From Eubacteriales bacterium (lineage in GTDB: Bacteria > Bacillota > Clostridia > Oscillospirales > CAG-272): 43,461 nucleotides of DNA. The stretch is taken from the NCBI GenBank assembly GCA_045643445.1, contig JAZUKT010000303.1, positions 1-43,461 on the forward strand, written 5' to 3'. This document shows positions 1-43,461 of this stretch, piece after piece. Made by a program: the position numbers and the translations under genes. Below the pieces are notes generated by a model that saw only the letters and a program-made list of their open reading frames with translations, searched no databases and was not told where the DNA came from. The first letter of the stretch is position 1; each line of letters begins with the position of its first letter.

Positions 1-1826
1 TTCGGGCAGGCGGCGAACTTGCCGTACCGTCCGTTCTTGATGACCATCTTCGCGCCGCAGAATTCGCAGATGATATCGGTTTCCTCCACCGGCACGTCCA
101 CGGCATGGACTTCGACGGAAGAGAGCGCCTTATCGAGTTCCTTACTGAATCCGCCGTAGAAACGGTTCAGAACGTCGAGCATGGAATCCCGGCCGTTCTC
201 GATCTCATCGAGCTCGGTTTCCATATCCGCCGTAAACTGGCAGTCTACGATGTCCGGGAAGTTTTCACACATGAGTTTGGTCGTCACTTCGCCGAGCTGC
301 GTCGGAACGAGCGATTTGCCTTCCCGCTTGACGTAGCCGCGCGTCGTGATCGTCGTGATGATGGTGGCATACGTGGACGGACGGCCGATCCCGCGGTCTT
401 CGAGCAGTTTGACGAGCGAGGCTTCGTTATAGCGTGCCGGCGGCTCCGTATAATGCTGCGCGGGTGTCAGGCTCTCCTGATTCAGGAGTTCGTTTTCCTT
501 CATCGGCGGCAGGCAGGTATTCTTTTCGTCGGATCCGGTCGGTTCGTCGGTCGATTCCTCATAAAGCGCCATGTAACCGGGGAATTCTACCGTATAGCCG
601 TTCGAGCGGAAGAGATAGCCCTCTGCCGTGAAATCCGTCTGCACGGTGGACATCTCCGCCGATTCCATCTGGCTGGCGATAAAGCGATCCCATACGAGCT
701 TATAGAGGCGATACTGATCGCTCGTCAGGCTCTTGCGGATCTTCGCGGGTTCGAGCATGGCGCCGGACGGACGGATCGCTTCGTGCGCGTCCTGCGCGTT
801 CGCTTTGGACTTATAATTCCGCGGGGATTCCGGCACGTATTCCCGGCCGAACTTTTCCGCGATATAGCTTCTGGCGGCTTCCTGCGCTTCGGGCGCGATC
901 CGCTGCGAGTCGGTACGCATATAGGTGATGAGACCCTGCATCCCGCCGAATTCCGAACCGACGTTGACGCCTTCGTACAGTTCCTGCGCCACACGCATCG
1001 TCCGCTGGGACTGGAAGTTCAGCTTGCGCGAGGCTTCCTGCTGCAAGGTGGATGTCGTGAACGGCGGCGCCGGATTCTTCGACTTCTTCCCGCGATGGAT
1101 CTCCGCCACGCGGAACGGTTTATCCTTCACGGCACGGCAGATAACGGCGGCTTCCGCTTCGTTATGCAGATCGATCTTCGTCTTGTCATCCGCTTTGCCG
1201 TAGAATTTCGTTTCGAACGTCTTGCCGTTATCGGCGATCAGGACAGCGTCCACCGTCCAGTATTCCTTCGGCTCGAACGCGCGGATCTCGTTTTCACGAT
1301 CGACGATGATGCGCGTCGCCACAGACTGCACACGTCCGGCGGAAAGGCCGCTCTTGACCGTTTTCCAGAGGAACGGGCTGAGCTTATAACCGACGATACG
1401 GTCGTGCAGGCGGCGCGTCTGCTGCGCGTTGACGATATTCATGTCGATCTCGCGCGGATGCTTGATGGATTCCTTGACCACGCTCTTGACGATGGCGTTG
1501 AACGGGACGCGCTTTGCTTTTTCCGGCGGAATCGCCAGCGCCGTGCAGAGATGCCATGCGATCGCTTCCCCTTCGCGGTCAGGGTCCGTTGCGAGGTAGA
1601 TCTTATCGGCGTTCTTGACTTCTTTTTTCAGGTCGCGGATGAGGTCGCCCTTGCCGCGGATGTTGATATAGTGCGCCTCAAAGTTATTGTCGATGTCGAT
1701 CCCGAGCGAGGACTTCGGCAGATCGCGCAGATGACCTTTGCAGGCTACCACCTTATAGGAGGAGCCGAGGTAGGACTTGACGGTGTTCGCCTTCGTCGGC
1801 GACTCCATAATGATCAGATTGCTCAT
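1..1826 (-). CDS. topA: DNA topoisomerase I, 5' part of gene; C-terminal end lies beyond the left edge
   Basis: The reverse strand from ATG at 1826 translates to MSNLIIMESPTKANTVKSYLGSSYKVVACKGHLRDLPKS...IYLATDPDREGEAIAWH (Toprim motif). The left edge reads ...EETDIICEFCGAKMVIKNGRYGKFAACP (Zn-ribbon). This ORF is missing from the track because it is open-ended. The 105..1865 + ORF is its antisense shadow. Confidence 0.9.
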   Translation of the reverse strand, partial: MSNLIIMESPTKANTVKSYLGSSYKVVACKGHLRDLPKSSLGIDIDNNFEAHYINIRGKGDLIRDLKKEVKNADKIYLATDPDREGEAIAWHLCTALAIPPEKAKRVPFNAIVKSVVKESIKHPREIDMNIVNAQQTRRLHDRIVGYKLSPFLWKTVKSGLSAGRVQSVATRIIVDRENEIRAFEPKEYWTVDAVLIADNGKTFETKFYGKADDKTKIDLHNEAEAAVICRAVKDKPFRVAEIHRGKKSKNPAPPFTTSTLQQEASRKLNFQSQRTMRVAQELYEGVNVGSEFGGMQGLITYMRTDSQRIAPEAQEAARSYIAEKFGREYVPESPRNYKSKANAQDAHEAIRPSGAMLEPAKIRKSLTSDQYRLYKLVWDRFIASQMESAEMSTVQTDFTAEGYLFRSNGYTVEFPGYMALYEESTDEPTGSDEKNTCLPPMKENELLNQESLTPAQHYTEPPARYNEASLVKLLEDRGIGRPSTYATIITTITTRGYVKREGKSLVPTQLGEVTTKLMCENFPDIVDCQFTADMETELDEIENGRDSMLDVLNRFYGGFSKELDKALSSVEVHAVDVPVEETDIICEFCGAKMVIKNGRYGKFAACP

Positions 1827-1872
1827 CGGAAATATTATCCCTTCGTAACTTGGTATTCTTGTTGATTTCGGT

Positions 1873-8383: not shown

Positions 8384-8483
8384 GATGTTATGTAACCTCC
8401 GAATAGATTTGGGATCAGCCATATTATAGCAGGCGCGGCACATAATGTCAAGTGTAGCGCCGCTTATTTTTCGATATTTCGCG

Positions 8484-9554
8484 TCAGCTCAGTTTGACGA
8501 TCCAGCCCATGTCGTCCGGCTTCTTGCCCCACTGCATACCCGTGATGGCGTCGTACAGCTTCTGTGCGATCGGGCCGATCTCGTTATTATTGATGATCAT
8601 GCGGGAGTCGCCGTCGAACAGTTCGCCGATCGGGGAGATAACGGCTGCCGTGCCGGTGCCGAACGCTTCGTCGAGCTTGCCGTTCTTATTGGCTTCGATG
8701 ACTTCGTCGATGGAGAGTTTGCGTTCTTCAACCGGAACGCCCCACTTCTTGAGCATTTCCACGCAGGAACGTCTCGTAACGCCGGGCAGGATATTGCCGT
8801 CCGTCAGTTCCGGGGTAACGACAACGCCGTCGATCACGAAGAAGACGTTCATGGCGCCGACTTCGTCGATGTACTTGCGGTGGATACCGTCGAGCCAGAG
8901 AACCTGCGCGTAGCCGAGGTCTTCCGCTCTCTTCTGACCGATCAGGGAGGCCGCGTAGTTGCCGCCTGCCTTGGCGAGACCCGTGCCGCCCTTTACGCAG
9001 CGGACGTATTCGCGTTCGACGAAGATCTTGACCGGGTTGATGCCGGCTTCATAGTAAGAGCCGACCGGGGAGAGGATGATGCAGAAAATATAGCTGTGCG
9101 ACGGATGTACGCCGAGGTGCGCGTCGGTCGCGATGATGAACGGGCGGATGTAGAGCGAAGTGCCTTCGTCGTACGGAACCCAGTCAACGTCCGTCATAAC
9201 GGTTTCTTTAATAGCCTGGAGCACGTCCTCTTCCGGGATCGTCGGAACGCAGAGACGCTTGCAGGTATTGTTCATTCTTTCAATGTTCTTGTCCGGGCGG
9301 AAGAGCTGGATACCGCCGTCTGCTCTGCGGTATGCCTTCAGGCCTTCGAACAGTTCCTGCGCGTAATGGAAAACCATGGCGGAAGGATCGAGCGCGAGCG
9401 GTGCGTACGGTACGATGCGCGCGTCATGCCAGCCCTTTTCCGTGGAATAATCCATTAGGAACATATGGTCGGTGAAATAGTTGCCGAAGCCGAGTTTCTT
9501 ATAATCCGGCTTGGTTTTCGGGGTCGCCGTTCTTTCGATTCTGATGTTGAGCAT
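8484..9554 (-). CDS. ilvE: Branched-chain amino acid aminotransferase
   Basis: 356 aa. The fold-type IV pattern ...FEGLKAYR...LYIRPF...GTGLAKAGGNYAASL...EVGAMNVFF...TRRS... is present. Confidence 0.9.
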   Translation of the reverse strand: MLNIRIERTATPKTKPDYKKLGFGNYFTDHMFLMDYSTEKGWHDARIVPYAPLALDPSAMVFHYAQELFEGLKAYRRADGGIQLFRPDKNIERMNNTCKRLCVPTIPEEDVLQAIKETVMTDVDWVPYDEGTSLYIRPFIIATDAHLGVHPSHSYIFCIILSPVGSYYEAGINPVKIFVEREYVRCVKGGTGLAKAGGNYAASLIGQKRAEDLGYAQVLWLDGIHRKYIDEVGAMNVFFVIDGVVVTPELTDGNILPGVTRRSCVEMLKKWGVPVEERKLSIDEVIEANKNGKLDEAFGTGTAAVISPIGELFDGDSRMIINNNEIGPIAQKLYDAITGMQWGKKPDDMGWIVKLS

Positions 9555-9615: not shown

Positions 9616-9737
9616 GAATTTTGAGGAAATATTCAATAAAAATCCGGCCTTTGTCCGGCATATCCGCGCCGACGACGGAATAAAATCCGATGAAAACAGA
9701 ATTTTGATCCCGTATTCCGATGAAAGGACGCTATATT

Positions 9738-11039
9738 ATGAAAAAAATCACTCTCTTTCTCCTGACCGCGCTGCTCCTTATCGCTCCGCTGACCGTTTCC
9801 GCCGCGGCCTATTCTTTCTCCGGCGGTCTGCTCACGCCCGGACTCCCGCTTCTCGCCGCCGGTGACGGAATGATCCGCTCTTCGCTCGTCGGCACGGAAG
9901 TGACTTTCTCACGCTCCGATTTTGAAAAGGCGGTCGGCTGCAGGCTCGATTCCGTCGTGATCACCGCGCTGCCGCCATCGTCTGATGGGACGCTGTACTT
10001 CGGTTCCGCGCCCGTGATCGCCAATCAGCTGATCGGAGCGGCGGCGCTCTCTTCCCTCCGCTTCGTTCCGTCTGCGGCCTGCGGAACAAGTTCGTTCCGC
10101 TTCAAGGCCGCAGGTGAATACAGCATCGAATGCGCTCTGAAATTCACCGACACCGTCAACGCCGCACCGACTGCCGCTCCTTCCGCCGCCGAAGCCGCCG
10201 CATTCCCCGATTCCGTCTGGACGCAGCAGGACATCACCGTCTACGGCACGCTGAACGGCTCCGATCCCGACGGTGATGCCGTGATCTTCGAGGTGACAAA
10301 AGCGCCCCGGCACGGGATTCTTGAGGTGATCAGCCCGTCGGTCGGCGACTACCGTTACACGCCGTTTGACGGATACGTCGGCAAGGACACGTTCAGTTAC
10401 ACGGTGCGTGACGAATGGGGCAACTATGCCGAAGACGCCGTCGTTTCGGTCGAGGTGGCGCGGGCGGCTGCCGATCTCGTTTTCGCCGACATGGACGGTC
10501 ACTGGGCGTACAACGCGGCGCTCGTGATGGCTGCCGAGGACGCCATGCAGGTCGAATCGGTTGACGGGCAGCTCTATTTCCGCCCGGGCGAACGGATCAG
10601 CCGCGAGGATTTCCTCGTCACGGTGATGAAAGCGCTCGGTTCGGGCGATATTGAGCCGACGGCCACCGTATTCGCCGACAACGCCGCTATCTCGCCCGAC
10701 GCCACCGGCTATATCGACCGCGCTTACCGGCTGGGCGTCATCCGCGGCAGTTATGAGAACGGGATGCTCTGCTTCAAGCCGGGCGATTCGATCACAAGGG
10801 CTGAGGCCGCCGTCATTCTGAACGCCATTCTCGGAGCGGAAACGCCCGACGCCGTCCCGGTCTTCGCCGACAGCTCCGCCGTTCCCGCCTGGGCGCAGGG
10901 CTCGCTTTATGCCCTGACTGCGAGCGGTTACTTCAAAGGTACCGGCGCCGGGCAGCTCTCCCCGAACGAGGTACTTGACCGTGCGCAGACCGCCGAAATC
11001 CTTCTCACGATCCGTCAGAAGCTCGGGACGCTTCGATGA
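9738..11039 (+). CDS. Cell-surface protein: signal peptide, Ig/cadherin-like domain, three SLH repeats
   Basis: MKKITLFLLTALLLIAPLTVSAAA is a signal peptide. GSDPDGDAVIFEVTKAPRHGILEV...YRYTPFDGYVGKDTFSYTVRDEWG is a cadherin-like/VCBS-type module. There are three F-A-D...W-A... SLH-like repeats (FADMDGHWAYNA, FADNAAISPDATGYIDRAY, FADSSAVPAWAQGSLYAL). Confidence 0.8.
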   Translation: MKKITLFLLTALLLIAPLTVSAAAYSFSGGLLTPGLPLLAAGDGMIRSSLVGTEVTFSRSDFEKAVGCRLDSVVITALPPSSDGTLYFGSAPVIANQLIGAAALSSLRFVPSAACGTSSFRFKAAGEYSIECALKFTDTVNAAPTAAPSAAEAAAFPDSVWTQQDITVYGTLNGSDPDGDAVIFEVTKAPRHGILEVISPSVGDYRYTPFDGYVGKDTFSYTVRDEWGNYAEDAVVSVEVARAAADLVFADMDGHWAYNAALVMAAEDAMQVESVDGQLYFRPGERISREDFLVTVMKALGSGDIEPTATVFADNAAISPDATGYIDRAYRLGVIRGSYENGMLCFKPGDSITRAEAAVILNAILGAETPDAVPVFADSSAVPAWAQGSLYALTASGYFKGTGAGQLSPNEVLDRAQTAEILLTIRQKLGTLR

Positions 11040-16092: not shown

Positions 16093-16971
16093 ATGAAAAA
16101 GATTCTTGCTCTCGCTCTGGCTCTCTGCCTGATCCTCGCTGCAGTCAGCTGCACCAAGGTTGAAGAAAAGCCCGAAGAAACCGATCCCGCTACGGATGAG
16201 ATCGTTGACACCGAACCCGCAACCGATTCCGAAACGGAACCCGCTATCCCCGATGAAACCGAACCCGAAGAAACCGAAGCGGCTCCCGCTGAAGAAGCAG
16301 ACGTAAAGGGCGAAGGCGTTATGACCTACGCTGAATACGCTGCCGCTGAACTCGACACCGAAGTGACCATCGAAACCTACGTTCAGGCCAAGCAGTCCTG
16401 GTGGGACAACAAGGCTACCGTTTACACGCAGGACAAGGACGGCGCTTACTTCCTCTACAACATGGTCTGCTCCGAAGAAGATTACGAAAAGCTGACCGTC
16501 GGTACGAAGATCAAGGTTACCGGCTTCAAGGCTGAATGGGCCGGCGAAGTTGAACTCGCTGAAGGCGCTACCTTCGAAATCGAAGAAGGCAATTACGTTG
16601 CTGCTCCTGTTGACGTTACCGCTCTTCTCGGCACCGATGAACTCATCGAAAAGCAGAACCAGCTCGTCGCCTTCAAGGGCATGACCGTTGCTCCGAGCAC
16701 CGATGCTGACGGCAACGAAGCCGCATTCCTCTACAACTGGGACGGCTCCGGCGAAGACGGCAACGACCTGTACTTCAACGTTGCTCTCGGCGAAAACACC
16801 TACACCTTCACCGTTGAATCCTACCTCTGCGACAACACCACCGACGTTTACGCTGCCGTTAAGGCTCTCCAGATCGGCGACGTGATCGACATGGAAGGCT
16901 TCCTCTACTGGTACAACGGCGTCAACCCGCACATCACGGCTGTTGCCGCTGCCGAATCCGCTGAAGCATAA
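16093..16971 (+). CDS. Lipoprotein of unknown function with an acidic Thr/Glu/Pro linker
   Basis: MKKILALALALCLILAAVSC carries a lipobox, with RBS AAAGGAG. A linker of about 45 aa (EEKPEETDPATDEIVDTEPATDSETEPAIPDETEPEETEAAPAEEA) precedes a globular domain of about 220 aa that I do not recognise. Confidence 0.7.
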   Translation: MKKILALALALCLILAAVSCTKVEEKPEETDPATDEIVDTEPATDSETEPAIPDETEPEETEAAPAEEADVKGEGVMTYAEYAAAELDTEVTIETYVQAKQSWWDNKATVYTQDKDGAYFLYNMVCSEEDYEKLTVGTKIKVTGFKAEWAGEVELAEGATFEIEEGNYVAAPVDVTALLGTDELIEKQNQLVAFKGMTVAPSTDADGNEAAFLYNWDGSGEDGNDLYFNVALGENTYTFTVESYLCDNTTDVYAAVKALQIGDVIDMEGFLYWYNGVNPHITAVAAAESAEA

Positions 16972-29569: not shown

Positions 29570-31195
29570 ATGATCATCAAACTTGCCATGATCGTCGTCT
29601 TCTTCGCAATCCTGCTCCTCGTCGGCATCGTAAGCCGCCGCAGCAGCAAGGGCGTTGACGGTTTCGTCCTCGGAGGCCGCTCGGTCGGTCCGTGGCTCAC
29701 CGCCTTCTCCTTCGGTACCTCATACTTCTCCGCCGTTATCTTCATCGGCTATGCCGGTCGTTTCGGCTGGAACTTCGGCCTCGCGTCCACGTGGATCGGT
29801 CTCGGCAACGCCTTCATCGGTTCCCTGCTCGCGTGGGTCATCCTCGGCCGCCGCACCCGCATCATGACGCAGCACCTCGGCAGCCGCACGATGCCCGACT
29901 ACTTCGGTCTCCGCTTCGGCTCGAAGGCGCTTCGCCTGACCGCCGCTGTTATCGTATTCATCTTCCTGATCCCTTATACGGCTTCCCTGTTCAACGGACT
30001 TTCGCAGCTCTTCTCCTCCGCCTTCTCCGGCGTCAGCTACGCATGGTGGGTCATCATCATGGCCGTTCTGACCGGCGTGTACGTCATCATCGGCGGTTAC
30101 ATGGGTGCTGCTGTCAATAACTTCATTCAGGGCATCGTCATGCTCGTCGGTATCGTCGCCGTCATCGGAGCCGTGCTGAAGGGTCAGGGCGGCCTCACCG
30201 AAGCGATCGCCAAGCTCTCCGCCGAAAGCACCGTCACCGCTGCCGGTACGACTTTCTCGGGTGCGTTCACGTCCTTCCTCGGCCCGCAGCCCGTTCAGCT
30301 CCTCGGCGTCGTGATCCTCACCTCGCTCGGCACCTGGGGTCTGCCGCAGATGGTCGGCAAATTCTACGCCATCAAGGATGAAGGCGCCGTTCAGAAGGGC
30401 ACGATCATTTCGACCGCGTTCGCTCTGATCGTGGCAGGCGGCTGCTACTTCCTCGGCGGTTTCGGCCGTCTCTTTGCCGCTGACATCGCGCTCACAGAAG
30501 CCGGCGCTCCCGCCTCCTTTGACACGATCATTCCGGCGATGCTCAATTCCGTCTGCTCGAAGATCGGCGTCTCCGGCGACTGGCTCATGGGTCTCGTTCT
30601 GATCCTCGTGCTCGCCGCGTCGATGTCTACGCTCGCTTCCCTCGTCATCACCTCCGCTTCCACCATTGCGCTTGACCTCGTCCGCGTCGTCCGCCGCAAC
30701 AAGGAAGTCAAGGAATCCCGCGAAGTACTCCTGATGCGTTTCCTGATCGCGCTCTCCATCGTGATCGCCGCCGCTATCGCCATCCTCGTCGCGTTCAACA
30801 AGGAAATGGCAAGCCGTCTCTACATCTCCGATCTGATGGGCATTTCCTGGGGCACGCTCGCCGGATGCTTCCTCGCACCGTTCATGTACGGTCTCTTCTG
30901 GAAGAAGGTCACCCGTCCTGCCGTGTGGGCAAGCTTCGTGACCGGCCTCGGCATCACCATGACGGAATTCGTGATCACCTCCGTCCTCGGTATTCATCTT
31001 GAAAACGCCGTGCTCAGCTACTTCTTCAACTCCGCCATCAACGCCGGTATGCTTGCGATGCTCGTCGGTCTGATCGTCGTTCCCGTCGTCAGCTGGCTCA
31101 CGCAGAAGCGCGTTCCCGACGGTGTATCCGATATGTTCGCCTGCTACGATCAGAAGGTCTCCGTCCCGGTCAGCACGGCGCTCAACAAGGACTGA
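29570..31195 (+). CDS. Sodium:solute symporter (SSS family), substrate unknown
   Basis: About 13 TM helices. GGRSVGPWLTAFSFGTSYFSAVIFIGYAG is the SSS signature region, closest by eye to the PanF/PutP-type pattern. Start set at ATG 29570 (AAAGGA RBS), because the longer ORF would overlap the T-box terminator. Confidence 0.85.
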   Translation: MIIKLAMIVVFFAILLLVGIVSRRSSKGVDGFVLGGRSVGPWLTAFSFGTSYFSAVIFIGYAGRFGWNFGLASTWIGLGNAFIGSLLAWVILGRRTRIMTQHLGSRTMPDYFGLRFGSKALRLTAAVIVFIFLIPYTASLFNGLSQLFSSAFSGVSYAWWVIIMAVLTGVYVIIGGYMGAAVNNFIQGIVMLVGIVAVIGAVLKGQGGLTEAIAKLSAESTVTAAGTTFSGAFTSFLGPQPVQLLGVVILTSLGTWGLPQMVGKFYAIKDEGAVQKGTIISTAFALIVAGGCYFLGGFGRLFAADIALTEAGAPASFDTIIPAMLNSVCSKIGVSGDWLMGLVLILVLAASMSTLASLVITSASTIALDLVRVVRRNKEVKESREVLLMRFLIALSIVIAAAIAILVAFNKEMASRLYISDLMGISWGTLAGCFLAPFMYGLFWKKVTRPAVWASFVTGLGITMTEFVITSVLGIHLENAVLSYFFNSAINAGMLAMLVGLIVVPVVSWLTQKRVPDGVSDMFACYDQKVSVPVSTALNKD

Positions 31196-31217
31196 TAATC
31201 TAAAACCGAATATTCAG

Positions 31218-31256
31218 AAAAGGCGTGCTGCTCTCAACGAACGGCACGCCTTTTTA
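31218..31256 (+). terminator. Intrinsic terminator after the symporter
   Basis: AAAAGGCGTGC...GCACGCCTTTTT. The 8-bp GC-rich stem is 31221..31228 / 31244..31251. Confidence 0.7.
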
Positions 31257-31263
31257 TATCGTT

Positions 31264-31303
31264 CAAAAGAAAAGCGCCCGTCCGCCGAAGCAGAGGAGCG
31301 CTT
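31264..31303 (-). terminator. Possible terminator after the 766-aa ORF
   Basis: Minus strand: AAGCGC...GCGCTT followed by TTCTTTTG. The stem is 6 bp and the loop is large. Confidence 0.4.
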
Positions 31304-31312
31304 AAACGATAT

Positions 31313-33613
31313 TCAGTTCAGCGTGAAGATGGCGCTGCAATGGCAGTCTGCCGACGGACGGATCTTGACCCAGTGAGCGGCAAAGCCTTCCGGGAATTCA
31401 AAGGTCTGTCCTTCACCCGGCTCGACCGTAAAGGTCTTCCAGCAGCCGTAGGTGCCGCCGCCTTCGAAGTCCACGTCGATCATGAAGCTGACCGGCTCTT
31501 TCTGATCGTGCGACAGTTTCAGCGAAACGTGACGGTAGCCCATGAGGAGGAACGGCTCGGACTGTTCGTTGCGGTAGAGGAAGCCGCCGTCGATCGGGCC
31601 GCCAACGCCGGACGGGGTACCCATGCGCCACAGATCATCGACATTGCCGAACCAGAGGCCGGTGCCGTCGTCAGCGCGGACGATATGCTCGCTGTCTTCC
31701 TTCGCGTCAACGCCGGTCAGAACGAGCAGACCGCGCCACGAGCAGAAGTCAGTGATGCGTACATTCGGTGTTGCGACAGGCTTGATCTTGAAGAGGCCGT
31801 CGGACGCCGGACGCGGAACTTCGTAGAACGTACCGCCGAGATACATCATGCTGCGTTCCGTGACGACTTCGCGCGTGATACGGGCGGCATCCAGCTGATC
31901 AAAGACGGGATTGCCCTTCGCCACGTGGAACTTATTGCCGAAGCAGTCGATGAGGACGAAGCTGTGGCCGGTGTCGCGGACGATCGGATCGAAGAAGACT
32001 TCGGCGTCCACGTCGGGCATCGGATCGGGCGTCGGAACGGCTTTCAGCTTCATGTCGCCGCCGATCTCATAGGTACGGATGCTGCCGTCGGGATTCGTGA
32101 GGTAATACTGCATCCGCATATCGAGGCCTTCCAGCGGGTATAGCTTACCGGCGCAGAAGTCACCGGGCTTGTCGGCCTTGTGGAGCCCCTTGAGCAGCGA
32201 TTCGTCTACGGCAACGTCGTTCTTCATACGGAGATGGAAGAACGCGCTGACGCCCGTAGCATCGCGTTCAGGCACGATACGAACCCATTCGGTCCCTTCG
32301 GGCAGATCGAGCGGGATCTGTACGTAAGAGTAGCCGTGGATCTCGATAGACTGAACAGGTGTCCACGCCTCCCAGCCGTGCTTATCGCATTCGATACGGA
32401 AGGTGACGCGGAGCATATCGCCGTTATAGATGTGCAGCGTTTTGAGATCGAATCCGCCGACGAAGAACGCTTCCGACGGTTCGTTGCAGATGACGTTTTC
32501 GTGGCTCCAGACGCCGCCGAAGCCGAGCGGTTCGCTCATCGCCTCGAGGTCTTCGTACTTCGCAAACCAGAGGTTGCTGGACTGCTGACCGAGCAGCGGA
32601 TTATCGAACGGAGACGCGTCGTCGCACGCAAAGGCCAGTTCGTCACCGAAGTTATCCCAGTCAGCGATCATCTTGAGGTGACGGCAGATCGGGCGGATGC
32701 CGTTCTTCTGCAGCGGCGTGAACTGTCCCGGGAAGTCGTAGAACATCCCGTGCATGCACATGAGGTAATGATCCGGGCCGATCTGACGGATTCTCGGCCA
32801 TTCGGTGTACCAGCCGTGGTCGGCGTCCTGCGTATAGCTTGCCTTCGGCAGACGGTATCTCGTCCAGCGTCCGCTTTCACGAACGTTCAGAAGGACGGAT
32901 TTATCATCCCAGCCGAGCGCCCACACGGGATCGGTCGAGGAAGTCGGTCCGTTGATGCCGCCGGGGCCCGTGATTTCCGTATATTTATTGCGGTCGATGA
33001 CCTTCCAGTTTGCTTTCTTCTGCGCGTCGCCCTTACCGTCCCATTCGGCGAGGATGCCGAGGTGGCCGTTATTCGAGAACATGCAGACACCCTGCGCGGA
33101 GTAGCAGCCCTTGCCGTGGTTGCCGAACAGCTTTTCCTTTACCGTATGCAGGCCGGAATCGTTGCAGAGATCACGGCGCAGGCGGCGGATCGCCATCGTA
33201 TTGACGTTGACTTCATAGAAGCCGTCTTCCATCGTATTGATGTAAACCCATTCGTCCGGGTCGTTCAGCGAAAGAGCGGCGCCCGTCAGACGGCCTTCCA
33301 GCTTTTTCACGTCATAGGCCTTGATCGTGCCGTCTTTGTCAATGACGTACGCGCCGAGGATCAGCTTGCCGGTCTTCGGGTGGATCATTCTGTTCGCATC
33401 GGTGCCGCCGACGCTTTCGGGATGCACCACGAGATCCAGAGATTCGTCGATGCTGTACAGTTTATCCGTACTGCCGGTCGGACGGGCTGCCGGATAGGTG
33501 ATCCAGTACAGGCGTCCGCCGTAATTGACGACAGCGCCGATACCGCATTCGCTATGCTCATCATTGGTTACGGCCAGATGCGGATATATGCCGCTGAAAC
33601 GTGGGTAATTCAT
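31313..33613 (-). CDS. 766-aa cytoplasmic protein of unknown function (no family recognised)
   Basis: The frame is long and clean, with AAAGGAG 8 nt upstream of ATG 33613 (MNYPRFSGIYPHLAV...). There is no signal peptide or TM helix. It is rich in W/Y/G/D. The opposite-strand 518-aa ORF is an Arg-rich shadow. Confidence 0.8.
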   Translation of the reverse strand: MNYPRFSGIYPHLAVTNDEHSECGIGAVVNYGGRLYWITYPAARPTGSTDKLYSIDESLDLVVHPESVGGTDANRMIHPKTGKLILGAYVIDKDGTIKAYDVKKLEGRLTGAALSLNDPDEWVYINTMEDGFYEVNVNTMAIRRLRRDLCNDSGLHTVKEKLFGNHGKGCYSAQGVCMFSNNGHLGILAEWDGKGDAQKKANWKVIDRNKYTEITGPGGINGPTSSTDPVWALGWDDKSVLLNVRESGRWTRYRLPKASYTQDADHGWYTEWPRIRQIGPDHYLMCMHGMFYDFPGQFTPLQKNGIRPICRHLKMIADWDNFGDELAFACDDASPFDNPLLGQQSSNLWFAKYEDLEAMSEPLGFGGVWSHENVICNEPSEAFFVGGFDLKTLHIYNGDMLRVTFRIECDKHGWEAWTPVQSIEIHGYSYVQIPLDLPEGTEWVRIVPERDATGVSAFFHLRMKNDVAVDESLLKGLHKADKPGDFCAGKLYPLEGLDMRMQYYLTNPDGSIRTYEIGGDMKLKAVPTPDPMPDVDAEVFFDPIVRDTGHSFVLIDCFGNKFHVAKGNPVFDQLDAARITREVVTERSMMYLGGTFYEVPRPASDGLFKIKPVATPNVRITDFCSWRGLLVLTGVDAKEDSEHIVRADDGTGLWFGNVDDLWRMGTPSGVGGPIDGGFLYRNEQSEPFLLMGYRHVSLKLSHDQKEPVSFMIDVDFEGGGTYGCWKTFTVEPGEGQTFEFPEGFAAHWVKIRPSADCHCSAIFTLN

Positions 33614-33687
33614 GGGGATTTCTCCTTTGGATTCATTGCGCAGACGTTTTTTGAGGCTGAAACGGCATACGCAGTAATACAAGGTAT

Positions 33688-33716
33688 AGTGTACTTTATT
33701 TATCCTTTTTTGTCAA
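33688..33716 (-). promoter_or_regulatory. Putative promoter of the 766-aa ORF
   Basis: Minus strand: TTGACA (33716..33711), 17 nt, TACACT (33693..33688). Confidence 0.4.
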
Positions 33717-33763: not shown

Positions 33764-33792
33764 ATGACAAATCCGCGATAATATGGTATAAT
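33764..33792 (+). promoter_or_regulatory. Putative promoter (extended -10) of the GH172 gene
   Basis: ATGACA (33764..33769), 17 nt, TGGTATAAT (-10 at 33787..33792). Confidence 0.55.
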
Positions 33793-33839: not shown

Positions 33840-34910
33840 ATGTTCAACGGACTCGGTATGAATCTCGGCAATCTCTCCCGCCTCTCTGACGCGAAAACGC
33901 GCTCCATTTCGGCGGAAAACTTCACAGGCGAAAAAGGCAAGGCCGCCATGGCGATGAAAAATCCCGATTTCGGATGGAAGTCCTCGCCTTGCGTACACGT
34001 TGCTCCCGGCGCAACCTTTACGCTCGCCGAAATCGAAGGCCCCGGCGCAATCCAGAGTATGTGGTTTGCCGGCACGATCACGCACTGGGGATGTGTCATC
34101 CGCATTTACTGGGACGATCAGGAAAATCCGTCGGTCGAGGCGCCGATCAACGCTTTCTTCGGCCTCGGCTACAACGACAATGTGAACGACGACACGGAGC
34201 GCTTCCCCGTTCTCTCCTCGCTCCCCGTTCTCGTCGCGCCGAACCGCGGGTTCAACTGTTTCTGGGAAATGCCGTTCCGCAAAAAATGCCGCATCACCAT
34301 CGAAAACCTGACCGAAAAGGAAAAATCCTGCTTCTATCAGATCAATTACACGCTGACCGACGTGCCGGACGACGCCGCATATTTTCACGCGCAGTACCGG
34401 CAGGAACGCCCGGTCGAATATAAGAAAGAATACACGATCCTCGACGGCGTGGTCGGCAAAGGACATTATGTCGGCACGACGCTCTCGGTCGGACTGAATC
34501 AGGCCGGCGGCTGGTGGGGCGAAGGCGAGATCAAGTTTTATCTGGACGGTGACGGTCCATATCCGACGATCTGCGGCACCGGTACGGAAGACTACTTCGG
34601 CGGCGCGTGGAACTGGGACGTGAACGGCCGCTACACGACGTATTCGGCTCCCTTCATGGGAATGTTCACGGTCTCGAAGCCGGACGGGCTCTACAAATCG
34701 CAGATGCGCTTCTCCCTGTATCGCTGGCACGTCATGGATCCGATCCGCTTTGACGAAAATCTCAAAGTCACGCTGATGGATCTCGGCTGGCGGCGCAACG
34801 GTTTTCTTGCACGGCGCGATGATTTCATGAGCGTGGCGTTCTGGTATCAGACGCTGCCGACCGCGCCGTTCCCGAAGTTCCCCGATATCGACGAACTCGA
34901 GATCATCTGA
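33840..34910 (+). CDS. DUF2961 / GH172-family glycoside hydrolase
   Basis: ...SISAENFTGEKG..., GPGAIQSMWF, FFGLGYN, NCFWEMPFRK, YFHAQYR, GEGEIKFYLDGD and GTGTEDYFGGAWNW are the characteristic DUF2961 jelly-roll motifs. No signal peptide. Confidence 0.85.
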   Translation: MFNGLGMNLGNLSRLSDAKTRSISAENFTGEKGKAAMAMKNPDFGWKSSPCVHVAPGATFTLAEIEGPGAIQSMWFAGTITHWGCVIRIYWDDQENPSVEAPINAFFGLGYNDNVNDDTERFPVLSSLPVLVAPNRGFNCFWEMPFRKKCRITIENLTEKEKSCFYQINYTLTDVPDDAAYFHAQYRQERPVEYKKEYTILDGVVGKGHYVGTTLSVGLNQAGGWWGEGEIKFYLDGDGPYPTICGTGTEDYFGGAWNWDVNGRYTTYSAPFMGMFTVSKPDGLYKSQMRFSLYRWHVMDPIRFDENLKVTLMDLGWRRNGFLARRDDFMSVAFWYQTLPTAPFPKFPDIDELEII

Positions 34911-34963: not shown

Positions 34964-35797
34964 TTATTTCCGAACCTCTACCCACGTGCCCGGCGCGTAC
35001 TGGGCGTGCAGAGCGGCTTCGCGGACTGCCATGATGGCGATCGTTTCTTCCGGCTGAACCGGCGGAATGCGCGTCTCGCAGAATTCAAGGAACTCTTTGA
35101 TAAAGATCTTGAAGTAGCTCGATTTCGCTTCCACGACGCGCTTGCCCTGCTCGCCGGACAGATGCATCATGAACGGGCCGCCTTCGAGCGTATCGATCGT
35201 GGCAAGACGACCGTCTTCGAACTCGATAATAAGGTGCGTGCGATCCGCGTGGCTCATCGCCATGACACGCTTCGGCTCGCCCTTCATCATCATCATGACA
35301 GGTTCAAGCTGGTGGATGGAATAGGTATCCAGACCGCCGCCGCCCCACGAGCAGATATTGTCGAGGTGTCCCTGATCCTGATACTCCGTTGCGTAGCGGA
35401 GCGCGGACGAAGAGAAGCACGGCGTATTGTATTCCGCAGCCAGAGCGAACATACGCTTGGCAGACGCGGCATCCGGGGCGAACGTCTTATCAATGAACAC
35501 GGGCTTGCCGGATTTGAGCGGCAGGTTGCAGAGCATTTCATGAAGCTGGCAGTGGTCAGGCGAGAGCACCATGATGGCGTCGCTTTCTTCGATCACCTGC
35601 TGAATGCTGTCGGCGAGCTTGAAGCCCATATCCGCGCACCATTTATCGGTGGGACGTCTTCTCGGAACCGGGCTGTCCATCACGGCCCATGCGATCGTTA
35701 CTTTCGCTTCTCCGCCGGATATTTCTTCGATCCACGCGGGATAGCTGTTGGCGTGCCATTCGTCAAGGTAGTTGTCAATAAATCCGATTTTAAGCAT
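34964..35797 (-). CDS. Divergent Gfo/Idh/MocA-like protein lacking an obvious dinucleotide-binding glycine loop
   Basis: MLKIGFIDNYLDEWHANSYPAWIEE... and ...IMVLSPDHCQLHEMLCNLPLKSGKPVFIDKTF (in place of EKP). Its overall length and pattern parallel the 19657..20541 product. Confidence 0.55.
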   Translation of the reverse strand: MLKIGFIDNYLDEWHANSYPAWIEEISGGEAKVTIAWAVMDSPVPRRRPTDKWCADMGFKLADSIQQVIEESDAIMVLSPDHCQLHEMLCNLPLKSGKPVFIDKTFAPDAASAKRMFALAAEYNTPCFSSSALRYATEYQDQGHLDNICSWGGGGLDTYSIHQLEPVMMMMKGEPKRVMAMSHADRTHLIIEFEDGRLATIDTLEGGPFMMHLSGEQGKRVVEAKSSYFKIFIKEFLEFCETRIPPVQPEETIAIMAVREAALHAQYAPGTWVEVRK

Positions 35798-35878: not shown

Positions 35879-35907
35879 TTGACACGCACCGATTTATTGA
35901 TTATAAT
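35879..35907 (+). promoter_or_regulatory. Sigma-A promoter of the GH2 gene
   Basis: TTGACA (35879..35884), 17 nt, TATAAT (35902..35907). Confidence 0.7.
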
Positions 35908-35938
35908 AAGATATCACGTACGAAGCAGGAGACTATCT

Positions 35939-38320
35939 ATGGAACGCAGAACAGAAGTACTGAAATACGGCTGGAAATTCCGGTTCTACCCCGACGGCTC
36001 GGCTCCCGCGGAAACCGTACTGCCCTCTTTTGACGACAGCGACTGGGAACAGGTACGCGTACCGCATGACTGGGCCATCAAGGGCGAATTCCGCAGCACC
36101 AACGACTGCACGTTCAGCAAGGTGTCGCAGGACGGGATCAACTATCCGATCGAACATACCGGCCGCACCGGCGCGCTTCCCATCGTCGGTCAGGGCGTAT
36201 ACCGGCTTTCCGTTGACGTTCCGGCCGATATGGAATCCCTGACGCTCGAATTCGACGGCGTGATGTGGGAATCCCATATCTATGTGAACGGTCAGCACGC
36301 CTTCTTCAATCATTTCGGCTACAAATCCTTTGAGGTCGATATTGCACCGTACGTCAACCCCGGCGAAAAGGCGCTGATCGCCGTCACAGCCTCCGTCTAT
36401 CACGACTGCTCCCGCTGGTATCCCGGCGCGGGCATCTATCGTCACGTGCGGCTGGTATCGAAATCCGCCGCGCACATCGTCTACAGCGGGATCTGGCTGC
36501 GTCAGCTTGAAGTACGCCCGGATCTGGCGGCGTTCGAATTATCCGTGGAGCATACGGCATCGGATTCCGCCGTTCTCCATGCGGAAATTTTCTCGCCGAG
36601 CGGTGAAGCCGTCTGCGTGGCCGATCACGGGACGTACAGAGGGGCGTTATCCACGGTTTTATGTATTCCCTCGCCCGTTCTCTGGAGCACCGACGAACCG
36701 AACCTCTACACGGCGCATATTGAGTTGAGAAGCGCCGACGGTCAGGTGCTCGATGCGGAAAACGTGAGATTCGGTATCCGCACGCTCGAATTCACGGCTG
36801 ATCACGGATTTTTCCTCAACGGGAAGCACATGAAGCTGAACGGTGTCTGCAATCACCACGACCTCGGCTCCATCGGCGCTGTCGTCAGCGTTCCGGCTCT
36901 CCGCCGTCAGCTCCGTCTGATGAAAGAAATGGGCGTGAACGCCATACGTACCTCCCACAACCCGCCGTCACCGGAGCTTCTCGATCTCTGCGACGAGATG
37001 GGCTTCTGCGTCATGGATGAGCTGTTCGACGAATGGCGCCTGCCGAAAATTTCGAACGGCTATGCAAAATATTTTGACGAACACGCCGAAGCGGACACCG
37101 TCGAAACGATCCGCCGCGACCGCAATCATCCCTCTGTTATTCTGTGGTCCATCGGCAACGAGATCAACGAACAGTGGGATCCCGAAGGCTGGCGCGACGC
37201 GAAATTTTTGACGGAAACCTGCCATCGCACCGACCCGACACGCCTCGTCACGGCCGGTATCTCTTATCCGGACGGCGCTTTTGAAAATCACATGACCGAC
37301 TATATCGACGTGATCGGTCTGAACTACAAGCCGCTGCTCTATGAAGAATTTCACCGGGCGCATCCGACCGTCAGATTCGTCGGCAGCGAAACGGATTCCT
37401 GCGTTTCCACCCGAGGCGTCTACCATCTCCCGGCATCAGTCGGCATCCCGGTCAACACGCACGATGATTTGACCATCAGCGCCTACGATCTGGATGCGAC
37501 CGCGTGGGGCAATTATCCCGAACGCGAATGGGCGGCGCAGGACGACTGTGAATTCCTCGCAGGCGAATTCGTCTGGACGGGCATGGATTATCTCGGCGAA
37601 CCGACTCCCTACCGCGCAGAATGGCCCGCACGTTCCGCTTATTTCGGGATCGTGGACATCACCGGGCAGCCGAAGAACCGCTTCTACGGCTACAAGGCGC
37701 ACTGGACGGACGAAAAAGTCCTGCACGTCTTTCCGCACTGGAACTGGGAAGGCATGGAAGGCAAGATCGTCCCGGTTCACGCCTATACGAGCTGGCCGTC
37801 GGCTGAATTATTCATCAACGGAAAATCCTTCGGCGTGCGCAGATTTGCCGAGGACGGCGAGATCGAGCGCTACCGGCTGATCTGGGACAACGCCGTCTAC
37901 GAGCCCGGCGAGATCAAAGTCGTGGCGTACGACGAGCACGGCGCTCCCGCAGCGGAAGAAAGTATCCGCACCGCCGGGAAGCCGCATCACGTCGTTCTTA
38001 CAGCGGAACGCGACGTCATCACCGCCGACGGCGACGATCTCGTATACGTGAAAGCCGCCATCGTCGATGAAAACGGCACGCTCTGCCCGCTTGCCTCTGA
38101 TCGGTTGTTCTTCTCGGTGGACGGCGCGGGTGAACTGCTTACGACGGACAGCGGCGATCAGCGCGAAACCGAATCGTTTGCGCGGCCCGACAAAAAGGCG
38201 CTCGCCGGAACCTCAGTCGCCTGCATCCGTTCCGTCGTCGGCCGCCCCGGCGATATCCGTATCAGCGTTTCGGCAGACGGGCTCGCCGGAGACTGCATCA
38301 CCGTAAAATCCGCAGAATGA
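35939..38320 (+). CDS. GH2-family beta-galactosidase/glycosidase, cytoplasmic
   Basis: GWKFRF..DDSDWEQVRVPHDW, NGVCNHHDLG, AIRTSHNPPSPELLDLCDEMGF and WSIGNE (acid/base), with C-terminal Ig-like domains. Start at ATG 35939 has an AGGAG RBS. Confidence 0.9.
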   Translation: MERRTEVLKYGWKFRFYPDGSAPAETVLPSFDDSDWEQVRVPHDWAIKGEFRSTNDCTFSKVSQDGINYPIEHTGRTGALPIVGQGVYRLSVDVPADMESLTLEFDGVMWESHIYVNGQHAFFNHFGYKSFEVDIAPYVNPGEKALIAVTASVYHDCSRWYPGAGIYRHVRLVSKSAAHIVYSGIWLRQLEVRPDLAAFELSVEHTASDSAVLHAEIFSPSGEAVCVADHGTYRGALSTVLCIPSPVLWSTDEPNLYTAHIELRSADGQVLDAENVRFGIRTLEFTADHGFFLNGKHMKLNGVCNHHDLGSIGAVVSVPALRRQLRLMKEMGVNAIRTSHNPPSPELLDLCDEMGFCVMDELFDEWRLPKISNGYAKYFDEHAEADTVETIRRDRNHPSVILWSIGNEINEQWDPEGWRDAKFLTETCHRTDPTRLVTAGISYPDGAFENHMTDYIDVIGLNYKPLLYEEFHRAHPTVRFVGSETDSCVSTRGVYHLPASVGIPVNTHDDLTISAYDLDATAWGNYPEREWAAQDDCEFLAGEFVWTGMDYLGEPTPYRAEWPARSAYFGIVDITGQPKNRFYGYKAHWTDEKVLHVFPHWNWEGMEGKIVPVHAYTSWPSAELFINGKSFGVRRFAEDGEIERYRLIWDNAVYEPGEIKVVAYDEHGAPAAEESIRTAGKPHHVVLTAERDVITADGDDLVYVKAAIVDENGTLCPLASDRLFFSVDGAGELLTTDSGDQRETESFARPDKKALAGTSVACIRSVVGRPGDIRISVSADGLAGDCITVKSAE

Positions 38321-39051: not shown

Positions 39052-39453
39052 TTATTCCAATGAGTCGGCTTCCGCGGCCTGACGTTCGATCTCGGCCTCC
39101 AGCTTCGGATGCGGATCCTCCCATGTGGTCGGCTTGATCGTCTTGCCCATTTCGTTATAATGCGGCTTGCCGTCCGGCCAGAGTTTCGCCATATTCGCGT
39201 CCTGCACGATCTCGAAAAGCGGATCGGGTTTGATCCCCATCTCAACGAGCGTGCCGAGCGCGAAATACATGACGTCGATCATGGCATCCGCCTGCTCCGT
39301 AATGTCCTCTGCTTCGAGAAATTCGTTGATCTCCTCAAGCATCCACGCATACCGCTTCTTCGCGCGCTCCGGCTCCATCATCGTCGGCCGCTCCGCGATC
39401 GGATGCCCGAATTTTTCCTGAAAGTCCCGTACCATCTGCCATTCTCTGTTCAT
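39052..39453 (-). CDS. All-alpha NTP pyrophosphohydrolase (MazG-like) family protein
   Basis: 133 aa. ...FQEKFGHP...RAKKRYAWMLEEINEFLEAEDITEQADAMIDVMYFALGTL...VQDANMAKL shows the EExxE...D metal-binding helix pattern of MazG-like small NTP-PPases. Confidence 0.6.
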   Translation of the reverse strand: MNREWQMVRDFQEKFGHPIAERPTMMEPERAKKRYAWMLEEINEFLEAEDITEQADAMIDVMYFALGTLVEMGIKPDPLFEIVQDANMAKLWPDGKPHYNEMGKTIKPTTWEDPHPKLEAEIERQAAEADSLE

Positions 39454-39559
39454 GCCGCACCTCGCGTTTTTTCTTTATTCTACCACAGATTCCGTCATCC
39501 TGCAACAGCAAAATAAAAAACAGCGCCGCATCCCGTCGGACACAGCGCCGTTTTGTCAC

Positions 39560-40015
39560 TTATTTCTGGAGAGAATCGCGGATTTCACGGAGCAGAAGGA
39601 TCTCTTCGCTCGGTTCGGCCGGTGCGGCTTCTGCTTCTGCAGCTGCTGCGGCTTCTTCCGCCTTCTTCTTCGCTTCCATCGCATCCTTCACCTTATTGAT
39701 GCTGCGGATGATGATGAACACGCACAGCGCAACGATGATGAAGTTGATGATCGCCTGGATGAACGCGCCGTACAGGACTGCGACTTCAGCGGTGTCTTCC
39801 GTTGCTTCGGTCAGAACAATCTTCAGCTCATCGAGCTTCACACCGCCGATCAGTTTGCCGATAAGCGGATTGATGATGCCGGATACGAGCTGGTTCACGA
39901 TCGCCGTGAAGGCGGAACCGACCACAACGCCGACTGCCATATCCATGACGTTGCCGCGTGCGATGAAGGTCTTGAACTCCGACCAGAAGGAGCTCTTTTT
40001 CTTTTCTTTTGCCAT
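39560..40015 (-). CDS. mscL: Large-conductance mechanosensitive channel
   Basis: FKTFIARGNVMDMAVGVVVGSAFTAIVNQLVSGIINPLIG is the MscL TM1 signature. Start set at ATG 40015, which has GGAGGA 5 nt upstream. Confidence 0.9.
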   Translation of the reverse strand: MAKEKKKSSFWSEFKTFIARGNVMDMAVGVVVGSAFTAIVNQLVSGIINPLIGKLIGGVKLDELKIVLTEATEDTAEVAVLYGAFIQAIINFIIVALCVFIIIRSINKVKDAMEAKKKAEEAAAAAEAEAAPAEPSEEILLLREIRDSLQK

Positions 40016-40041
40016 GTTGTCCTCCAAAATATATGTATTTT

Positions 40042-40251
40042 TCAGGATTGCCCGTTTTCGTCCGTCGGGAGCGGGATCTTCGATATATCAAGCGTACCGT
40101 GGATACGCTCGTGATACTGCACGTTCGTGCGGATCAGATGAAGCAGATGATTATTGAGATCTCTGCCCTCCGCCGACGCCGCCGCGATCATCTTCCGGTA
40201 CAGTTCCTCGTCGATGCGCACGCTGAAGCTGATTTTGTTTTTCTGCGGCAT
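40042..40251 (-). CDS. Ribbon-helix-helix (Arc/CopG-like) DNA-binding protein
   Basis: MPQKNKISFSVRIDEELYRKMIAAASAEGRDLNNHLLHLIR has the beta-strand plus two-helix RHH pattern. It lies 15 nt upstream of mscL. The start could also be ATG 40257. Confidence 0.6.
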   Translation of the reverse strand: MPQKNKISFSVRIDEELYRKMIAAASAEGRDLNNHLLHLIRTNVQYHERIHGTLDISKIPLPTDENGQS

Positions 40252-42717: not shown

Positions 42718-42750
42718 ATGCCGGCAGACCTATCTATGAGGAGTTAACGT

Positions 42751-43461
42751 ATGAAGAAACCTATAAAAATCGCAGGATTCTACATCCTTCTGATCGCCGT
42801 GATCCTCGTCGCTACGGCCTTCCTGTGGGATTCCATTCCGCAGGATAAGCCCGTATACAGCGACATCATCACGATGTTCCAGAGCGAGCAGGTCAAGGAA
42901 TTCACGGTCGACGAGAACAACACGCTCTCCATGACCGTGCGCGTCACGCTCGACGACGGAACCGAAGGCGAAAAATACGTCACCTACAAACTGCGTGACC
43001 TCGGCCTCTTTGTGAACGATCTCGGCGAACTGATCGACGAACAGCACGCGGCCGGCGTCATCACGAATTACGACTATCCCGCGCCGCATACGCTTCCGAT
43101 ATGGGTAGCGCTGCTTCCCTATATCATCCTGATCGTCGTTCTGATCGGCGCGTTCATTTTCTTCATCAATCAGGTGCCAGGCGGAAAAGGCTCGAAGATC
43201 GGCTCCGTCGGCCGCGCCAAAGCCAAGCTCGTAACGGCTGACAAGGCGAAGGTATTCTTCAAGGACGTGGCCGGTGCGGATGAAGAAAAAGCGGAACTCG
43301 AAGAAGTTGTCGAATTTCTGCGTAATCCCGCATATTTCACGAAGCTCGGCGCGAAGATTCCACACGGCGTGCTGCTCGTAGGCCCTCCCGGAACCGGTAA
43401 AACGCTCATTGCCAAGGCCGTGGCCGGTGAAGCGGGCGTTCCCTTCTACTCGATCTCCGGC
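42751..43461 (+). CDS. ftsH: ATP-dependent zinc metalloprotease FtsH, N-terminal part; continues beyond the right edge
   Basis: ATG 42751 follows GAGGAG. The product has [20 protein letters not shown] (TM1), a second TM, then [68 protein letters not shown] (Walker A). It is absent from the track because it is open-ended. Confidence 0.9.

Follow-up and report, generated by a model that had tools for sequence, protein, structure and literature searches.

The locus and its gene

The window analyzed here is a stretch of 43,461 nucleotides (contig JAZUKT010000303.1, assembly GCA_045643445.1) from a member of the Clostridia, and it carries on its minus strand a gene for a large protein of 766 amino acids, hereafter the target, which a preliminary description had put forward as a candidate new carbohydrate-active enzyme. 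The target is a member of a widespread bacterial family that is unnamed in Pfam, NCBIfam, PADLOC, and PHROGs, and it carries an ancient internal duplication of a module made of propeller blades and a β-sandwich. We would class the family as probable glycan-active enzymes that are built on a propeller and have an unusual, duplicated architecture. The gene and its putative control signals, with the basis of each call in brackets, are as follows:

31313..33613, minus strand: coding sequence of the 766-aa protein, stop codon included; member of the unnamed family (open reading frame and homologues)
33621..33628, minus strand: ribosome-binding site AAAGGAGA, 7 nt upstream of the ATG (sequence read)
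33688..33716, minus strand: sigma-70-like promoter TTGACA-17-TACACT, 10/12 matches (consensus match alone)
33764..33792, plus strand: TG-extended ATGACA-17-TATAAT, divergent, facing the DUF2961/GH172 gene (consensus match)
31265..31302, minus strand: terminator-like GC-rich hairpin followed by UUUUCUUUU, directly 3' of the stop codon (folding)
31213..31253, strand undefined: second hairpin, between an A-run and a U-run (folding)

The open reading frame (ORF) was read from an ATG at 33613 (MNYPRF...), giving a product of 86 kDa. An alternative TTG start at 33682 in the same minus-strand ORF would give 789 aa, but the ATG is regarded as the true start because the N-termini of the homologues begin 4–13 residues ahead of the conserved FSGIYPHLA motif (aa 6–14). 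The strong ribosome-binding site, the separate promoter-like site and the terminator-like hairpin that had been ascribed to the gene were all located. The 117-nt spacer between the target stop codon and a convergent SSF symporter gene contains two GC-rich hairpins with U-runs (ΔG −53.8 kcal/mol, z = −7.8), and the one at 31213..31253 is probably a bidirectional terminator common to both genes; a scan for consensus terminators called none in this spacer. Codon-position GC in the target gene is 0.59/0.41/0.75. The protein has neither a signal peptide nor a transmembrane helix, in agreement with the earlier reading (maximum Kyte-Doolittle 19-mer value 0.77), and the richness in W, Y, G, and D noted there was measured as 10.2% G, 8.2% D, 2.6% W, and 3.9% Y. 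The DG-type motifs IDKDGTIKAY and TNPDGSIRTY were found at aa 91–100 and 506–515, and ADDGTGLW at aa 647–654.

Glycoside hydrolase (GH) genes surround the target as had been described, each one with a Pfam match, and the intergenic region between the target and the divergent DUF2961/GH172 gene is indeed 226 bp long. The neighboring genes, all assigned by Pfam, are:

24045-25541: GH27-like gene
25609-26973: GH29 gene
26976-29018: GH3 gene
29495-31195: SSF symporter gene, convergent with the target
33840-34910: DUF2961/GH172 gene, divergent from the target (E 3.8e-86)
34964-35797, minus strand: weak GFO/IDH/MocA-like protein
35879-38320: GH2 gene

Homology searches and distribution of the family

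The target had been described as devoid of any recognizable domain signature, and database searches agree with this. It gave no match against Pfam (E ≤ 1), NCBIfam (June 2026 release), PADLOC, or PHROGs, and PDB sequences searched at E ≤ 10 returned 0 matches, whether by phmmer, with a profile of 51 family sequences, or with a profile merging both internal repeats, while structural comparison with Foldseek (see below) recovered generic propellers only. When the 51 aligned members were searched against Pfam, only sub-threshold matches to carbohydrate-binding modules (CBM6, CBM35) and to F5/8-type-C domains were obtained in some of them, together with a spurious Zn_Ribbon_Topo match. In contrast to this silence, a word-indexed search recovered more than 5,700 homologues, of which the best 120 are full-length at 40–65% identity, and every named one among these 120 is annotated as 'hypothetical protein'. 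The gene is therefore real beyond doubt. An exhaustive profile search covering 1.84 billion representatives retrieved 1,975 clusters (50% identity) with a cutoff of E ≤ 1e-3, a number that falls to 619 with E ≤ 1e-30. In species-representative genomes, at least 589 loci were confirmed. Carriers belong to Planctomycetota, Verrucomicrobiota, Lentisphaerae, Clostridia, Paenibacillus, Bacteroidota, Armatimonadota, Abditibacteriota, Acidobacteriota, Treponema, and others; the named ones are all bacteria, complete Paenibacillus genomes included. No description of the family came up in the papers searched, nor any of PF12831 proteins (see below) in polysaccharide utilization loci (PULs).

Signal peptides or lipoprotein signals are present in members from diderm phyla (Planctomycetota, Verrucomicrobiota, Bacteroidota), and none were seen in Firmicutes or Treponema. 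The target itself is considered cytoplasmic because its host (Clostridia) is monoderm and the protein lacks a signal peptide. In two members, P0131 (1258 aa) and P0149 (1330 aa), the full family domain is preceded by an S1 sulfatase (PF00884 plus SGSH_C) in the same polypeptide, and these represent two independent fusions. Other extensions comprise tails of the type IX secretion system (T9SS), TSP3 repeats (P0122), Fn3_assoc/CHB_HEX_C modules, a WD40 propeller (P0153), and long regions with no Pfam match (P0128, P0176). Some loci hold a second family copy, in tandem in L024 (9226-11502 and 12504-14858) and L077 (8977-11337 and 12751-15081), which derive from Verrucomicrobiota and Prolixibacteraceae, or about 5 kb apart in the Clostridiales locus L071 (3813-5171 and 10001-12235).

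Predicted fold, internal duplication, and conserved residues

An AlphaFold2 model built with the 51-sequence alignment is all-β and confident (predicted local distance difference test score, pLDDT, 93.2; predicted TM-score, pTM, 0.93). By DSSP, blade-like groups of four strands extend to about aa 351 and are followed by an eight-strand sandwich (aa 363–462); the C-terminal half comprises approximately four further blade-like groups (aa 489–656) and a second sandwich (aa 669–765). The following regions were delimited:

32534..33613, minus strand: N-terminal β-propeller domain (aa 1–360), seven blades by fold match; the most conserved part, holding R75, D236, E271, and R274
32228..32908, minus strand: internal repeat A (aa 236–462), approximately the last 2.5 propeller blades, a helix, and β-sandwich 1
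31973..32227, minus strand: connecting β-strand region (aa 463–547), about 1.5–2 blade-like units, poorly conserved (DSSP, conservation)
31316..31972, minus strand: internal repeat B (aa 548–766), blades and β-sandwich 2, with REVVTER (581–587), D622, and the ADDGTGLW turn

The first 360 residues are an autonomous domain, since they still gave a confident model when folded alone (pLDDT 90.2, pTM 0.91). The best Foldseek matches of this domain are seven-bladed WD40 propellers (TM-score 0.50–0.55), followed by the propeller of the BT4663 sensor (0.47), with no GH or polysaccharide lyase (PL) propeller in the top 50. The whole model matched in the PDB only multi-propeller proteins at TM-scores ≤ 0.28, such as PorZ (5m11), BT4663 (4a2l), DDB1, and Gemin5, besides GH43 structures as weak generic matches (TMq 0.16–0.20). 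With the viral BFVD searched as well, the matches were still no more than generic propellers, tail-hub proteins, and the like.

The duplication is evident at the sequence level. Sub-alignments of repeats A and B align by hhalign over 217 columns (probability 100%, E 3.3e-47), and the two repeats recognize each other even within the single target sequence (BLASTP E 1e-11). Each is built of roughly 2.5 blades, one short helix, and a β-sandwich, and both have kept S239/S551, R274/R578, R276/R581, P295/P600, P308/P612, D318/D622, G387/G692, and W443/W748, while the hallmark of the family, DADHGWYTEW with E271 inside, is an insertion unique to repeat A. A propeller accompanied by a diverged copy of its own last blades and sandwich is an arrangement absent from the Foldseek matches. 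The alignment of the repeats also bears on ADDGTGLW, which had been likened to an Asp-box: it aligns with NLWF (aa 347–350, in SSNLWF) of repeat A and is therefore no BNR motif, nor was any BNR match obtained.

Conservation was assessed over 48 divergent representatives (34–53% identity). The polar residues R75, D236, E271, R274, and D622 are invariant, as is W443; in at least 93% of these members, conservation extends to E22, R108, H166, K168, N182, R254, D318, R445, R581, E586, R587, E598, and R627. Mean per-column identity to the target amounts to 0.46 in the propeller versus 0.30–0.35 elsewhere. Leaving the C-terminal half out of the model lowers the pLDDT of the loop around aa 261–270 from 77 to 64, and because of this drop the E271 loop is tentatively placed, at the level of the model, at the interface of the two lobes, in line with an interdomain cleft.

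Genomic context of the homologues

Functional pairing with the divergent GH172 gene, as had been proposed, would predict co-occurrence in other genomes, and the check ran against it. When the GH172 protein of the window was used as tblastn query, a relative was found in 1 of 80 species-representative loci (L070), which remained the sole case in all of the approximately 90 loci, and the 223 proteins encoded by first and second neighbors include a single DUF2961 protein. The pairing is a local coincidence within an island rich in carbohydrate-active enzymes (CAZymes). Linkage to glycan-degrading genes in general does hold across other genomes, although all-versus-all clustering of flanking ORFs revealed no universally conserved partner. 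The commonest flanking families are AraC (9 proteins), LacI-type regulators, GFO/IDH/MocA (7), SusD, sugar substrate-binding proteins (SBPs), and permeases; fucosidases of GH29 and GH95 are also frequent, as are sulfatases and proteins resembling heparinase II/III.

The theme is sugar utilization throughout, as individual units show. On a plasmid of Spirosoma oryzicola, SusC, SusD, and the homologue form a unit with no further enzyme gene, and a plasmid of Chondrinema litorale, an isolate from a red alga, carries genes for a FAD-dependent oxidoreductase, a hypothetical protein, SusC, SusD, a sulfatase, and the homologue. A PUL of Prolixibacteraceae encodes an extracytoplasmic function (ECF) sigma/anti-sigma pair, SusC/D, GH29, a GH30-like protein, the homologue with a T9SS tail, a protein of unknown type, and a LacZ-type GH2. 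In Paenibacillus three arrangements were found (LacI, SBP, homologue, GFO/IDH/MocA; AraC-type response regulator, SBP, homologue; LacI, homologue, PL8), and in Treponema the homologue is followed by ABC permeases, an SBP, and regulators. Among the closest homologues, given here by their identity to the target, the one at 64% is accompanied by Lyx_isomer, PfkB, Mannitol_dh_C, and GH38; the one at 53% follows an ABC importer, with a sulfatase and GH38 downstream; and the one at 51% lies among AraC, ABC, ROK, PfkB, a mannosidase-type GH2, Lyx_isomer, and Mannitol_dh. The homologue at 63% stands between AraC and a PF12831 FAD oxidoreductase, with BNR_2, GH123, and a sulfatase near, and that at 65% has BNR_2 and a polysaccharide deacetylase in its vicinity.

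The most recurrent specific partner, by raw count, is a PF12831-like FAD-dependent oxidoreductase, which lies within 10 kb in 16 of approximately 90 non-redundant loci (~18%) from five phyla and is immediately adjacent to the homologue in several of the 16. The window has no PF12831 gene. The loci that carry one are:

L008, L013, L024, L035, L036, L039, L044, L049, L065, L066, L071, L079, L093, L094, L095, L098

Three of these also encode large proteins that lack a Pfam match or are labeled 'hypothetical' (L093:13636-16122, L093:19364-20461, L095:414-2720, L098:3569-5509). The one in L095 (768 aa) lies outside the family, and all of these large unannotated proteins may be further undescribed glycan-active proteins.

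Proposed function

We judge it somewhat probable that the target is a glycoside-cleaving enzyme, most probably a hydrolase, with a putative catalytic center on the propeller (D236/E271, R75/R274) that is closed by the duplicated lobe (D622, R578, R581). A glycan-degrading enzyme is proposed because some PULs and some regulator-importer units hold no enzyme candidate other than the homologue, because of the pattern of localization, and because of the sulfatase fusions. The cross-genome context strengthens a carbohydrate-active role in a way that is still inferential. The earlier suggestion of a new carbohydrate-active enzyme is supported in part: PULs, sulfatase fusions, T9SS tails, weak CBM-like matches, and sugar regulators and importers speak for it, whereas the partnership with GH172 and the Asp-box have fallen away.

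In such a scheme, the target would act on oligosaccharides released from complex heteroglycans, which would often be sulfated or fucosylated. In its Clostridia host it would work intracellularly on sugars brought in by a transporter; candidates in the window are an ABC importer (11.5–16 kb) and the adjacent SSF symporter. Compared directly, as a possible cognate, with the importers next to the closest homologues, the ABC importer proved not to be their orthologue and was just ~25% identical to them. The diderm forms of the enzyme bear a signal peptide, a T9SS tail, or a lipoprotein signal, and their site of action would be extracytoplasmic. The N-terminal propeller would offer the main substrate pocket, with D236 and E271 (the latter in the family-defining HGWYTEWPRIR loop) as a presumed acid/base pair and R75 and R274 holding a polar or anionic sugar substituent. 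The second lobe (aa 548–766), being a diverged copy of the last blades and the sandwich, would close the cleft and contribute D622, R578, and R581, and the two CBM-like sandwiches may help to hold the glycan. Fusion to a sulfatase is also seen in endo-acting enzymes of sulfated glycans, an example being the sulfatase-GH195 tandem (PMC13063451). The contexts suggest that the substrate linkage is one common to complex heteroglycans that also hold fucose, galactose, mannose, and sulfate or acidic groups.

Several observations weigh against this proposal. A catalytic motif of a known GH or PL family was sought in the target and none was found, and the Foldseek matches are generic WD40-like propellers (TM-score ~0.5), many of which are non-enzymatic scaffolds or glycan sensors (PorZ, BT4663). 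Since they are conserved in both repeats, R274/R276/D318 and R578/R581/D622 may be structural rather than catalytic, the clustering of the invariant residues in one pocket is presumed, and the many invariant arginines suit a lyase or an enzyme of acidic sugars equally well. The neighboring genes are too heterogeneous for a single substrate to be named, and the counts of neighbor families given above are raw and stem from CAZyme-rich genomes.

Whether the target also founds a CAZy family of its own, be it GH or PL, is, in our estimate, evenly balanced. Such a family would have a duplicated-lobe propeller architecture without precedent, would be carried by soil, gut, and marine bacteria of hundreds of species, and would cleave a linkage of sulfated or fucosylated heteroglycans for which there is no known enzyme, perhaps together with PF12831-type proteins and S1 sulfatases.

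Alternative explanations and comparison with known families

The alternative that survives best, although we regard it as unlikely, is a carbohydrate-active enzyme that is not a hydrolase but a lyase of polysaccharides or oligosaccharides, or some other enzyme of anionic (uronic, sulfated, or pyruvylated) sugars, with the cytoplasmic forms possibly being phosphorylases as in GH130. The seven-bladed lyases of PL24, PL25, and PL42 use Arg/His/Lys/Tyr chemistry, and the target family is rich in invariant or nearly invariant basic residues (R75, R108, H166, K168, R254, R274, R276, R445, R581, R587, R627). The sulfatase fusions and sulfatase neighbors, the PL8 and Hepar_II_III genes beside some homologues, and the recurrent PF12831-like neighbor would fit as well, the xanthan lyase XalA of Paenibacillus alginolyticus being, as we presume, of the PF12831 type. 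On the other side, the target matches none of the solved PL propellers in sequence or fold, the genes of uronate catabolism (GH88, GH105, KduI, KduD) are absent from the 25 most frequent neighbor families, and three invariant carboxylates are typical of hydrolases; an obligate phosphorylase is further disfavored by the secreted members, which keep the same invariant residues.

Propeller GHs and PLs with appended β-sandwich modules resemble the target in their general plan. In GH43 with CBM, GH74, PL24/PL25/PL42, and GH181, an all-β propeller is the presumed catalytic platform and CBM-like sandwiches occur; like the target family, these enzymes reside in PULs or sugar operons, are secreted in diderms and cytoplasmic in monoderms, and have invariant carboxylates and arginines. 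They differ in that no sequence, profile, or specific structural similarity links them to the target, which has duplicated last blades plus a sandwich and is devoid of Asp-boxes. The individual groups were rejected one after another. For the seven-bladed PL24/PL25/PL42 (GH145) lyases there were 0 PDB profile matches at E ≤ 10 and none of them appeared in the top 50 of Foldseek; the five-bladed GHs (GH32, 43, 62, 68, 117, 130, 159, 165) gave no Pfam match, the N-terminal domain being nearest to seven-bladed propellers; and the sialidases of GH33 and GH181 (BNR propellers with Asp-boxes) had no BNR or BNR_2 match in the 51 members and no PDB match. GH181, which has been crystallized, is moreover described as six-bladed, as opposed to a target propeller that is seven-bladed by fold match and has no PDB sequence match. 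A WD40 repeat protein (PF00400 and relatives) was also discarded, as no WD40 match was found in the family core and the likeness lies at the fold level (TM-score ~0.5).

A CAZy family with neither a Pfam model nor a solved structure cannot be excluded by negative Pfam and PDB searches, and such families were therefore examined separately. If the target belonged to one of these, i.e., to GH122 or to a family created after 2021, its function would be as proposed above but would not be new; we hold this to be rather improbable. The λ-carrageenases of GH150 have no solved structure, and their crystallization failed (PMC12549532). They are large, described as multi-lobed with an Arg-rich substrate cleft, and linked to GH2, GH110, and S1 sulfatases. 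An orthologue of GH150B was found via a published primer (L097:19932-22631, Pseudoalteromonas carrageenovora plasmid NZ_CP027525.1), within a LacI-GH2-sulfatase-GH110-GH110-GH150-sulfatase cluster. PGAP names it 'hypothetical protein', and as a genuine GH150 enzyme bears the same label as the target, this label is no sign of novelty. Size, label, and linkage to sulfatases and GH2 are thus shared with the target, but direct comparison showed no sequence or profile similarity: hhalign gave a probability of 0.7%, BLASTP E > 1, and tblastn of the target found no match on NZ_CP027525.1, where both GH150 genes lie.

Other families were set aside by their described folds. AlphaFold modelling of families without a structure as of 2021 assigned TIM barrels to GH96 and GH111, five-bladed propellers to GH159 and GH165, and β-helices to GH118 and GH160, leaving GH122 as the sole seven-bladed propeller (PMC8602953). 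The all-β target is thereby distinguished, by fold description, from GH96 and GH111, and in the same way from GH195 (a GH99-like catalytic fold in the literature) and PL40 (an (α/α)6 toroid in the literature). GH122, the family of the Pyrococcus furiosus α-glucosidase (PF0132), is closer: it is cytoplasmic, of the same seven-bladed fold class, and has no revealing Pfam model or PDB entry, and archaeal proteins with 'GH122 + GH122' double matches (PMC12542729) recall the internal repeat of the target. However, GH122 genes were exclusively archaeal in a CAZy-wide survey (PMC7922503) and belong to α-glucan or starch contexts, whereas the named carriers of the target family are all bacteria and the homologues do not lie in loci for α-glucan, starch, or maltodextrin, a distinction of reported range and context. 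GH and PL families established after 2021 are a residual risk to the novelty of the target family.

A non-catalytic glycan-binding or scaffolding protein, i.e., a sensor or accessory factor like the tandem-propeller sensors and PorZ, is very unlikely: PorZ and the heparin-sensing periplasmic domain of BT4663 are among the top Foldseek matches of the whole protein and share with it a multi-lobed all-β build, a terminal β-sandwich, and a place in glycan biology, the N-terminal domain does resemble WD40 scaffolds, and no catalytic motif is recognizable, but the resemblance is at the fold level only (TM-score ~0.25 for the whole protein, ~0.5 for the domain), the conserved residues differ, the target has no Reg_prop, Y_Y_Y, or other signaling or output domain, the homologue is the only enzyme candidate in the SusC/D unit of Spirosoma and the regulator-SBP units of Paenibacillus, and catalysis fits both the sulfatase fusions and the fact that carboxylates and arginines are strictly invariant from phylum to phylum.

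Host and other features of the window

The window derives from an uncultured member of the Clostridia. Its TilS is ~50% identical to proteins from Ruminococcaceae and Eubacteriales metagenome-assembled genomes (MAGs), and genes for a phosphotransferase system (PTS) and DprA are also present. The protein encoded at 9720-11039 (plus strand), which is secreted and combines an SLH domain with Big_9 and cadherin-like ones, fits a monoderm or S-layer-bearing host. The closest homologues of the target by identity (64–71%; L005, L007, L085) come from MAGs labeled Lentisphaerae, as opposed to the Clostridia-like TilS, a discrepancy that points either to mis-binning of contigs or to horizontal transfer from one anaerobe to another.

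Two short GFO/IDH/MocA-like proteins with weak Rossmann-domain matches, of 277 aa (34964-35797, minus strand) and 294 aa (19657-20541, minus strand), are not close paralogues (BLASTP E 0.017), and genes of this type are among the most frequent immediate neighbors of homologues elsewhere. Long ORFs with no Pfam match lie at 105-1865 (plus), 39452-40114 (plus), and 42730-43365 (minus), while at 8445-9458 (plus)/8484-9554 (minus) and 16093-16971 (plus)/16027-16932 (minus), ORFs with no Pfam match face equally long antisense frames, so that the coding strand is ambiguous. Neither an Rfam family nor a tRNA was found in the window.

Significance

The size of the family, its spread over phyla, the confident model, the SusC/D units in which it is the sole enzyme candidate, and the sulfatase fusions make it worth pursuing, and the internal duplication is of structural and evolutionary interest in itself. 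As cultured carriers exist (Paenibacillus ginsengarvi KCTC 13059, Spirosoma oryzicola RHs26, Chondrinema litorale WSW3-B12), the question is directly testable. PUL genes without known function are the main reservoir of undiscovered glycan-degrading activities, and the assignment of an activity to this family would annotate thousands of 'hypothetical proteins' at once and could provide a step still lacking from the known degradation of recalcitrant sulfated glycans, be they algal, host-derived, or microbial.

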